DNA of 64,000 nucleotides from Escherichia coli. GTDB lineage: Bacteria > Pseudomonadota > Gammaproteobacteria > Enterobacterales > Enterobacteriaceae. This document shows, one piece after another, positions 3,341 through 4,894 of the stretch; within the stretch, counting starts at the first letter, position 1, and every line of letters begins with the position of its first letter. The notes beneath the pieces were generated by a model. That model was not told the DNA's origin and did no database searches. It saw nothing but the letters and a program-made list of their open reading frames with translations. The stretch lies in the NCBI RefSeq assembly GCF_044647545.1, contig NZ_CP172818.1. The stretch is one strand, 5' to 3'. The translations under genes were made by a program, and so were the position numbers.

Positions 3341-4594
3341 CTATTTTTGCGCCGATTCTTTACTGTCAGCTTTCGTTTCTTGTTCATCGTTATCGCTGAA
3401 AATGCCATGACCGGAGTTCAACAACATTGAAACGAGCATATCATTATTAATCTCTTCACCATTTAAAACTCGCGCCAGAATTTCGCTGCCAAACAGTTGT
3501 GGTGAGAGAATGATATCCGGATGTACCATCTTAATCTTATTCAGGTTTTTGCTATCACTGACGGCAAGAACTGTTTTGACATCACTGCTCATATCTTTTG
3601 CCGAGAGTACAACAAACGCGTTATCTGCATCGTTATCACTCAGCGCCAGAATGGCCCGGCAACGATCGATTCCCGCTTTCTTTAACACTGAACTGTCATT
3701 ACTGTCACCGGGGATAACATCAGCGTTATCGCCTAAGCGTTGCTCAAGTTGCTTGATATCATCTTCAGGCAAGTTGCTGATAACCGTAACGTTTTGTCCG
3801 CGTTGATTCAGTTGCAGGATCGTATTGATGGCGAGAATCGAATGTCCGCAAACAATAAAATGATCTTTACGATGCATTGTATGATTGTTTCCTTTTACAA
3901 GTTTGTTGAATCCCCCGCGGATAAGCGGACCAAAAATTGAGGTCATAGAGGTGGCAAAAACGGTAATGCCGGAAATAATGACCGAAATAGTGAACAATCG
4001 TGCTGATTCAGAAACAGGGACAATATCGCCATAGCCGACGGTTGACATGGTTTCTATCGAAAAATAGAACGCGGTCATCAAACTTTCTATTCGCGGATTA
4101 AAACCTTCGCTTAAATAAAGCGCACCGTAGGTGGAGTAAAACAGTAACGTCGTGAAACTAATAAATGCGAAAATTGTCCCGGCTGCGGCGCTACTGTGGG
4201 AGAAGTCTTTGCGCAGTATCAGCAAAAACACCAGCGTAAAAATGCAAAATCCAATACTAAATTTCAGCCAGGGATAAAAATGCAGGGTGTAAATTAGCGC
4301 TATCAACAACAAAATGATACTGATTGCCCATGCGAGTTTTGCCCGGAACAGTAAGCCAATGGAGTTCAGGACAAGAAAGACGCCGAGCATAAAGAGTGGG
4401 GCGTTTGCCAGCAAGGAGAGATCCAACTCTGAAAAGGCTTTGATATGGAAAATATCAAGCAAATTGACCGACATACCATAGATTGTTTTAAAAATAAGCA
4501 ATCCATTTAAAAAAACGGCCAGCGCGAGAATGTCGTGCCGTAGGGTCACCCATAAATTAGTTGCTGTTTGTTTGAATGTAGCCCAGTGACTCAC
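3341..4594 (-). CDS. kch: Voltage-gated potassium channel Kch
   Basis: Multi-TM protein with K+ selectivity filter TVGYGD and C-terminal RCK/TrkA-like domain; ORF-track frame extends to 4612 (423 aa); annotated 417-aa form would start at the in-frame GTG at 4594. Confidence 0.85.
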   Translation of the reverse strand: MSHWATFKQTATNLWVTLRHDILALAVFLNGLLIFKTIYGMSVNLLDIFHIKAFSELDLSLLANAPLFMLGVFLVLNSIGLLFRAKLAWAISIILLLIALIYTLHFYPWLKFSIGFCIFTLVFLLILRKDFSHSSAAAGTIFAFISFTTLLFYSTYGALYLSEGFNPRIESLMTAFYFSIETMSTVGYGDIVPVSESARLFTISVIISGITVFATSMTSIFGPLIRGGFNKLVKGNNHTMHRKDHFIVCGHSILAINTILQLNQRGQNVTVISNLPEDDIKQLEQRLGDNADVIPGDSNDSSVLKKAGIDRCRAILALSDNDADNAFVVLSAKDMSSDVKTVLAVSDSKNLNKIKMVHPDIILSPQLFGSEILARVLNGEEINNDMLVSMLLNSGHGIFSDNDEQETKADSKESAQK

Positions 4595-4894
4595 TGATAC
4601 CTCTGTAACCACAATTTTGTTTAATTATCTCAACGTGCACATTTTCTGAACATACATGCAGCACGTGAATGTGTTAAACAATAGTAGATGACTTTATCTG
4701 AAGTAATCAAAGGTTTTGAGTGAGCAACTCTGCGTCAGGAAAGGGCATTTTTCCTGAATATGCTCACATCATATAAAGAAATACAGATAAAGTTATTATC
4801 TGCTTGTGGGGGTGAATGCACTGACCGACCTATAAGGAAAGGCCAAACAAGAACACGGTTGCAAAAACCGTGCCCTTAAATATTGAATCTCTAT

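Follow-up and report, generated by a model that had tools for sequence, protein, structure and literature searches.

The kch locus and its two in-frame start codons

The window analysed here, a stretch of 64,000 nucleotides from Escherichia coli (assembly GCF_044647545.1, contig NZ_CP172818.1), holds on its minus strand an open reading frame at 3341-4612, which comprises 423 codons and a TAG stop according to the ORF listing and its translation. Genome comparison identifies the region as E. coli kch, with strain FDAARGOS_497 being 100% identical. The kch region is found in 5421 of 5426 complete E. coli genomes, and the gene order in the window is the same as in K-12, namely yciI-kch-yciY-cls. 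The following features are distinguished (window coordinates, with the type of evidence in brackets):

3341-4594, minus strand: kch coding sequence as supported, 417 codons plus TAG (RefSeq CDS of the identical strain, NF007828, Pfam, PDB 1ID1)
4592-4594, minus strand: GTG initiation codon, the annotated start, K-12 coordinate 1310269 (INRI-seq, orthologues, RefSeq)
4599-4604, minus strand: Shine-Dalgarno (SD) sequence AGAGGT, with core GAGGT at 4603-4599 (duplex with the 16S 3' end, conservation)
4610-4612, minus strand: upstream in-frame GTG, K-12 coordinate 1310287, best read as a non-initiating triplet of the 5' UTR (no SD, no listed INRI-seq start, not conserved)
4625-4627, minus strand: in-frame TAA closing the kch frame, 33 nt before GTG 4594 (codon walk)
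4649-4677, minus strand: sigma-70-like match, TTAACA, a 17 nt spacer and TATGTT, a candidate kch promoter only (pattern scan, 9 of 12 matches)

On the minus strand, the 5' end of the frame reads ...TAA TTA AAC AAA ATT GTG GTT ACA GAG GTA TCA GTG AGT CAC TGG.... The two candidate starts, GTG 4612-4610 and GTG 4594-4592, lie in frame and 18 nt apart, and would give rise to products of 423 and 417 residues, respectively, which are the two lengths put forward in the initial annotation. The upstream candidate had been taken there for an ATG. At 4612-4610 the codon is in fact a GTG, as the plus strand has cac at 4610-4612. Both candidates are consequently GTG codons, and a search of the window for the pattern ATGGTTACAGAGG returned a match only at one mismatch, as GTGGTTACAGAGG. 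The six extra residues of the 423-residue form are MVTEVS, and, since the first hydrophobic segment of this form starts at about residue 26, they would precede the first transmembrane segment, as had been proposed. The 417-residue product begins with M-S-H-W-A-T-F, and its N-terminal peptide SHWATFK is to be set against (M)VTEVSVSHWATFK for the 423-residue form.

The stretch between TAA 4627-4625 and GTG 4594 contains 10 open codons. From the base composition of the window, the probability of finding at least one ATG, GTG, or TTG in 10 open codons is about 0.39, and a walk upstream from any true start would reach an NTG sooner than a stop with a probability of about 0.50, so that the presence of an in-frame upstream GTG is what would be expected at chance level.

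Protein identity and domain architecture

The assignment of the frame to kch is borne out both by the NCBIfam equivalog family NF007828, to which the protein belongs with 646.1 bits against a cut-off of 425, and by RefSeq and the synteny with K-12. Kch is built from a potassium channel portion with six transmembrane segments and a C-terminal RCK/TrkA_N domain. The pore domain is recognised by Pfam Ion_trans_2 (E = 6e-16), and the selectivity filter TVGYGD does not vary across an alignment of 24 sequences. The C-terminal RCK domain is recognised by Pfam TrkA_N (E = 7e-20), and residues 247-399 are 100% identical to PDB 1ID1, the crystal structure of this domain. Among the solved structures there is the RCK domain 1ID1 alone, and none resolves the N-terminus of Kch. 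For potassium conduction or voltage gating in vivo, support comes from the literature only, in the form of the gain-of-function genetics summarised in PMC2234077.

An internal in-frame ATG at 3877-3875 (Met240 in the numbering of the 417-residue form) is located just before the RCK domain and is preceded by an SD-like AAGGA at 3890-3894 (-5.6 kcal/mol). This codon is a known candidate for internal initiation of a soluble RCK domain. It is the counterpart of the internal start Met107 of MthK, an RCK potassium channel from Methanobacterium that combines a pore with a C-terminal RCK domain as Kch does. A passage of PMC2920069, citing Kuo et al. 2003, states that removal of the putative internal start leaves Kch expression and function unchanged. 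Lying about 720 nt downstream, the MthK-like start at Met240 is unrelated to the ambiguity at the 5' end.

Annotation of the start in databases

In RefSeq, the downstream GTG is the annotated start in FDAARGOS_497, in K-12 MG1655 (b1250, 1310269), and in every E. coli genome sampled. In the protein collection, the 417-residue form occurs on at least 1000 contigs and the 423-residue form on 8, which agrees with the earlier description of the shorter product as the commonly annotated one. The K-12 protein (b1250, NP_415766.1; WP_000020078.1 in the identical strain) is encoded by the same gene, with the same synteny, the same GTG start, and 417 residues. The K-12 start region is identical to that of the window from -30 to +37, and the two sequences differ only in strain-level substitutions, which fall in a few codons and in the intergenic stretch beyond -30. 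In most E. coli genomes, the intergenic region and the 5' end of kch show 96.8-98.3% identity.

The longer form is found in a few older GenBank records, such as ALY13231.1 and EFE63804.1. Together with the position of GTG 4612 as the start of the longest ORF, the existence of these records (8 contigs) would favour a reading in which this codon is the true and only start and the common 417-residue annotation is wrong. Hardly any credence is given to it here. The family profile begins six residues later, with positions 2-403 of the 403 in NF007828 aligning to residues 8-408 of the 423-residue form, and further evidence against it comes from the ribosome-binding site, the initiation data, and the orthologues described below.

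Some matches to the region depart from the usual picture. Places matching window positions 4300-4900 lie on plasmid-labelled records in 14 of 5494 cases, and some genomes have up to three such places. In the ETEC-2265 record, 53% of the kch 5' query is covered, while a shortened protein annotated as "ion channel" is found in TUM24570.

Ribosome-binding site and leader

The core GAGGT is separated from GTG 4594 by a spacer of 4 nt (ATCA) and sits within the would-be extension codons ACA GAG GTA. SD spacers of 4-5 nt fall inside the functional range. Pairing with the anti-SD was computed over the 20 nt preceding each candidate, and amounts to -7.1 kcal/mol for GTG 4594, whereas the A/T-rich stretch before GTG 4612 reaches -2.7 kcal/mol in the window and -1.2 kcal/mol in K-12. 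As a background, 2.3% of 1300 positions of the locus attain -7.1 kcal/mol and 29% attain -2.7 kcal/mol. The initial annotation had held that the sequence alone does not decide between the two starts, and had suggested an analysis of SD spacing for each of them. That analysis, now carried out, finds an SD only for GTG 4594 and clearly favours it, so the first of these statements has to be dropped. GTG 4612, being without an SD, also makes a poor sole start.

The sequence CAGAGGT is kept in Escherichia albertii, Escherichia whittamii, Escherichia sp. E1V33, and three metagenomic orthologue types. GTG 4594 thus exhibits the features of a canonical SD-led initiation site, namely complementarity, an in vitro footprint, and a start conserved in orthologues. 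According to the proposed mechanism, GAGGT (4603-4599) would position the 30S subunit 4 nt upstream of GTG 4594, and the 18 nt between the two GTG codons would represent the ribosome-binding site rather than extra codons.

RNA structure around both starts is weak, with folding of the region weaker than that of shuffled sequence (z = +1.26). On the minus strand, positions 4584-4596 form a perfect 5-bp inverted repeat, CAGTG-AGT-CACTG, whose 5' arm includes the GTG start (-4.6 kcal/mol for the centroid structure). In the P0019 type of orthologue introduced below, the pairing of this hairpin is preserved by a G-U wobble; the repeat overlaps the conserved M-S-H-W codons.

With regard to the transcript, the promoter scan yielded a single weak consensus match, the one at 4649-4677. 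Sigma-70-like sites are no more frequent in the region than in shuffled sequence, and neither E. albertii nor E. whittamii retains the -10-like hexamer of this match. If this candidate promoter were the true one, both GTG codons would be carried on the mRNA. An entry for kch was not found in the dRNA-seq supplement (PMC4681348), and an Rfam search of positions 3000-5400 returned only a chance sub-threshold match to CRISPR-DR35 (E = 0.4).

Published initiation-site data

The data that bear most directly on the choice between the two codons come from INRI-seq (Hor et al. 2022, PMC9825163), a cell-free approach in which initiating ribosomes are trapped with retapamulin on one synthetic RNA per K-12 gene. 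The kch RNA begins at -30 (GGG-TTAAACAAAATTGTGGTTACAGAGGTATCAGTG...) and consequently carries both GTG codons (PMC9825163); it shows no differences from the window between -30 and +37. The leader used in this reconstituted in vitro system consists of 30 native nucleotides plus GGG, which leaves the upstream GTG 15 nt from the 5' end. The 3' end of the footprint lies 12-18 nt downstream of the assigned start codon (PMC9825163), and because peaks are assigned in this manner, two GTG codons 18 nt apart are separable by the method.

At K-12 coordinate 1310269, which corresponds to GTG 4594, peaks of 95, 159, 196, 218, and 175 CPM were recorded in five of five replicates, and the start is scored "TRUE" in Table S2 (PMC9825163). 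Non-annotated starts are collected in Table S3, which includes peaks seen in a single replicate and upstream sites as far as -24 (PMC9825163). That table passes from b1249 to b1251, without a row for b1250, and hence lists no alternative start for kch (PMC9825163). The strong in vitro peak therefore belongs to the downstream GTG, which counts further against GTG 4612 as the only start.

These data also bear on dual initiation, in which GTG 4594 would be the main start and GTG 4612 would be used at a low level, independently of an SD, to produce a minor 423-residue isoform, longer by six residues on the cytoplasmic side. An A-rich leader (TTAAACAAAATT) precedes GTG 4612, the region is weakly folded (the z value given above), and A-rich, weakly structured stretches have been linked to SD-independent initiation by the INRI-seq authors, who report numerous alternative starts of this kind, A-rich and devoid of an SD, in genes other than kch (PMC9825163). 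Moreover, starts are called by INRI-seq from at least 10% of the reads of a gene and at least 5 CPM (PMC9825163). Given this threshold, a minor kch start could escape detection, and there is room for an isoform below about 10%. Against it, no kch peak appears in the table of alternative starts, even at the level of single replicates.

A genuine dual start is found in mrcB, which resembles kch in that its ORF has a pair of in-frame NTG codons close to the 5' end. In mrcB, the +135 start is seen both in vitro by INRI-seq and in vivo by Ribo-RET, whereas kch shows a peak at the annotated start only, and sister species do not retain its second codon. Signal at both codons, as expected of a dual-start isoform, was not found for kch in the in vitro INRI-seq data at a threshold of about 10%.

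In vivo, the Ribo-RET data of Meydan et al., as tabulated in Table S2 of the INRI-seq study, give a signal of 0 at kch (PMC9825163), which is attributed to the gene being barely expressed. Entries for kch (b1250) were not found in the TetRP supplement (PMC4909307), nor was a kch entry found in the TRAINSPOTTER N-terminomics supplement (PMC13245402). Initiation data supporting one start only, which in the terms of the initial annotation would refute the ambiguity, are thus provided in vitro by INRI-seq; the in vivo Ribo-RET value is 0. The start at GTG 4594 is presumably used likewise in living cells.

Comparison with orthologues

The DNA around the start was read at 15 distinct orthologue loci (L002, L003, L005, L006, L008/L031, L009-L013, L021, L028, and L036-L039). 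In E. albertii NBRC 107761, the SD and the GTG start are identical to those of E. coli and the ORF has 417 codons, while position -18 is occupied by GCG and a TGA stands at -33, with no other in-frame start. Of two other close orthologues, the P0019 type (87% identity, yciI-linked, metagenomic) has TTA at -18 and TAG at -36. In the P0021 type (83%), AAG occupies -18, and the spacer between SD and start exceeds that of E. coli by one base. In-frame stops are found at -21 in the Plesiomonas type, at -15 in Vibrio renipiscarius and in a Shewanella MAG, and at -12 in Enterovibrio. Among the loci read, the upstream GTG is retained only in E. coli, E. whittamii, Escherichia sp. E1V33, and the P0020 type. 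Escherichia-type orthologues have the SD and an M-S-H/R-W N-terminus in common, and the predicted N-termini of 19 of 23 aligned homologues are at the downstream start.

This distribution shows the upstream GTG to be dispensable. It is lacking in E. albertii and in other orthologues with otherwise full-length proteins (417 residues), which stands against its being the sole start, and the 423-residue models of a few GenBank records are artefacts of choosing the longest ORF.

Dual initiation is affected in both directions by the comparison. The upstream GTG is invariant in 5420 E. coli genomes and has been kept in three other lineages, which speaks for dual initiation. On the other hand, it has been lost without any compensating start in E. 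albertii and two other close orthologues, and the conservation of both codons across related species that characterises dual starts was not found. In the P0020 type, which keeps the codon, the sole change in the extension is ACA to GCA, which is non-synonymous. Furthermore, the invariance spans the whole block from -26 to +10, SD included, and constraint on the ribosome-binding region explains it equally well. The 36 nt of this block (window 4585-4620) are matched in 5420 of 5426 complete E. coli genomes, the sampled mismatches in a wider 60-mer fall at -34 and +14, and the intergenic region beyond, upstream, differs at many positions between strains. The invariance fits a constraint on the translation initiation region, and does not discriminate between coding and regulatory constraint. 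On balance, dual initiation is considered improbable.

A further reading involves a tiny upstream ORF, in which TTG 4614 would open the frame LWLQRYQ* and its TGA (4593-4591), overlapping the kch GTG as GTGA, would couple or gate the translation of kch. The out-of-frame TTG and the overlapping GTGA are indeed present in the sequence. However, no SD precedes TTG 4614, and no out-of-frame start at -20 is listed for b1250 in INRI-seq, where such sites (-19, -20) are listed for other genes. In addition, neither the P0019 nor the P0021 type preserves the TTG, and a frame of seven codons is a chance expectation. Lacking an SD, an INRI-seq peak, and conservation, the reading from TTG 4614 to TGA was rejected as very unlikely.

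Several loci show other features of the kch surroundings. On two metagenome contigs (L003/L004, gene at 1501-2766), a Kch homologue of 83% identity lies in a different neighbourhood, between a SnoaL_2 gene on its upstream side and, on its downstream side, hcr/hcp-like genes that also occur in Plesiomonas-type loci. The start region of this homologue is nearly identical to that of E. coli, including the upstream GTG. In E. coli 21AH126 (NZ_AP043969.1), the entire native leader and promoter region of kch has been replaced through the insertion of an IS1 element, which lies about 5 nt before the upstream GTG (equivalent to about position 4617 of the window).

Base composition, phylogenetic distribution, and the neighbouring gene

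The kch gene and its flanks (approximately 3300-5100) have a G+C content of 0.39-0.45, versus about 0.50 for the whole window. The nearest homologues after those of Escherichia come from Plesiomonas, Aeromonas, Shewanella, and Vibrio and relatives, with approximately 55-71% identity. A closer homologue from another enterobacterial genus was not found, the search dropping from Escherichia-type sequences directly to those of Plesiomonas, Aeromonas, and Shewanella at 64-71% (about 70% for Plesiomonas). The low G+C content and this gap among the homologues are consistent with horizontal acquisition, which has already been noted in a review.

The adjacent gene yciI (4895-5254, minus strand) exhibits a similar mechanical over-extension, its 119-residue ORF opening with a TTG as opposed to the 98 residues of RefSeq, with a start at about 5191. 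At the annotated start of yciI, INRI-seq recorded a weak peak of 5-9 CPM (PMC9825163).

Assignment of the kch start and start codon usage in the family

Complementarity of the SD, loss of the upstream GTG across species, and the in vitro initiation peak have been shown directly, and kch is very probably translated from GTG 4594-4592 into the 417-residue Kch, with GTG 4612 being an incidental triplet of the 5' UTR. The standard 417-residue annotation is correct, and the start is an ordinary one that was already annotated as such. The importance of this result is small, as it confirms the standard annotation of kch. In practical terms, cloning or tagging at the N-terminus, as well as reporter fusions, should use GTG 4594 (K-12 1310269), with the preceding 18 nt regarded as the ribosome-binding site.

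The orthologues draw attention to the start codon itself. At all 15 distinct loci, the start is GTG or TTG and never ATG, the homologous codon being the called start. GTG is used in the Escherichia lineages, Aeromonas schubertii, and Shewanella sp. D64, and TTG in two Plesiomonas-type loci, V. renipiscarius, Endozoicomonas, Enterovibrio, and the Shewanella MAG. For several of these loci, in-frame stops between -12 and -21 fix the position of the start, and the loci span at least seven genera, with 55-100% protein identity to the protein of the window. It may be, although the odds are placed somewhat below even, that the Kch family is under selection for a weak, non-ATG start, in which case the upstream GTG of the E. 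coli clade might provide a trace 423-residue isoform or a standby site. If so, initiation would be held low, which would cap the dosage of a channel that can be harmful to the cell when too active.
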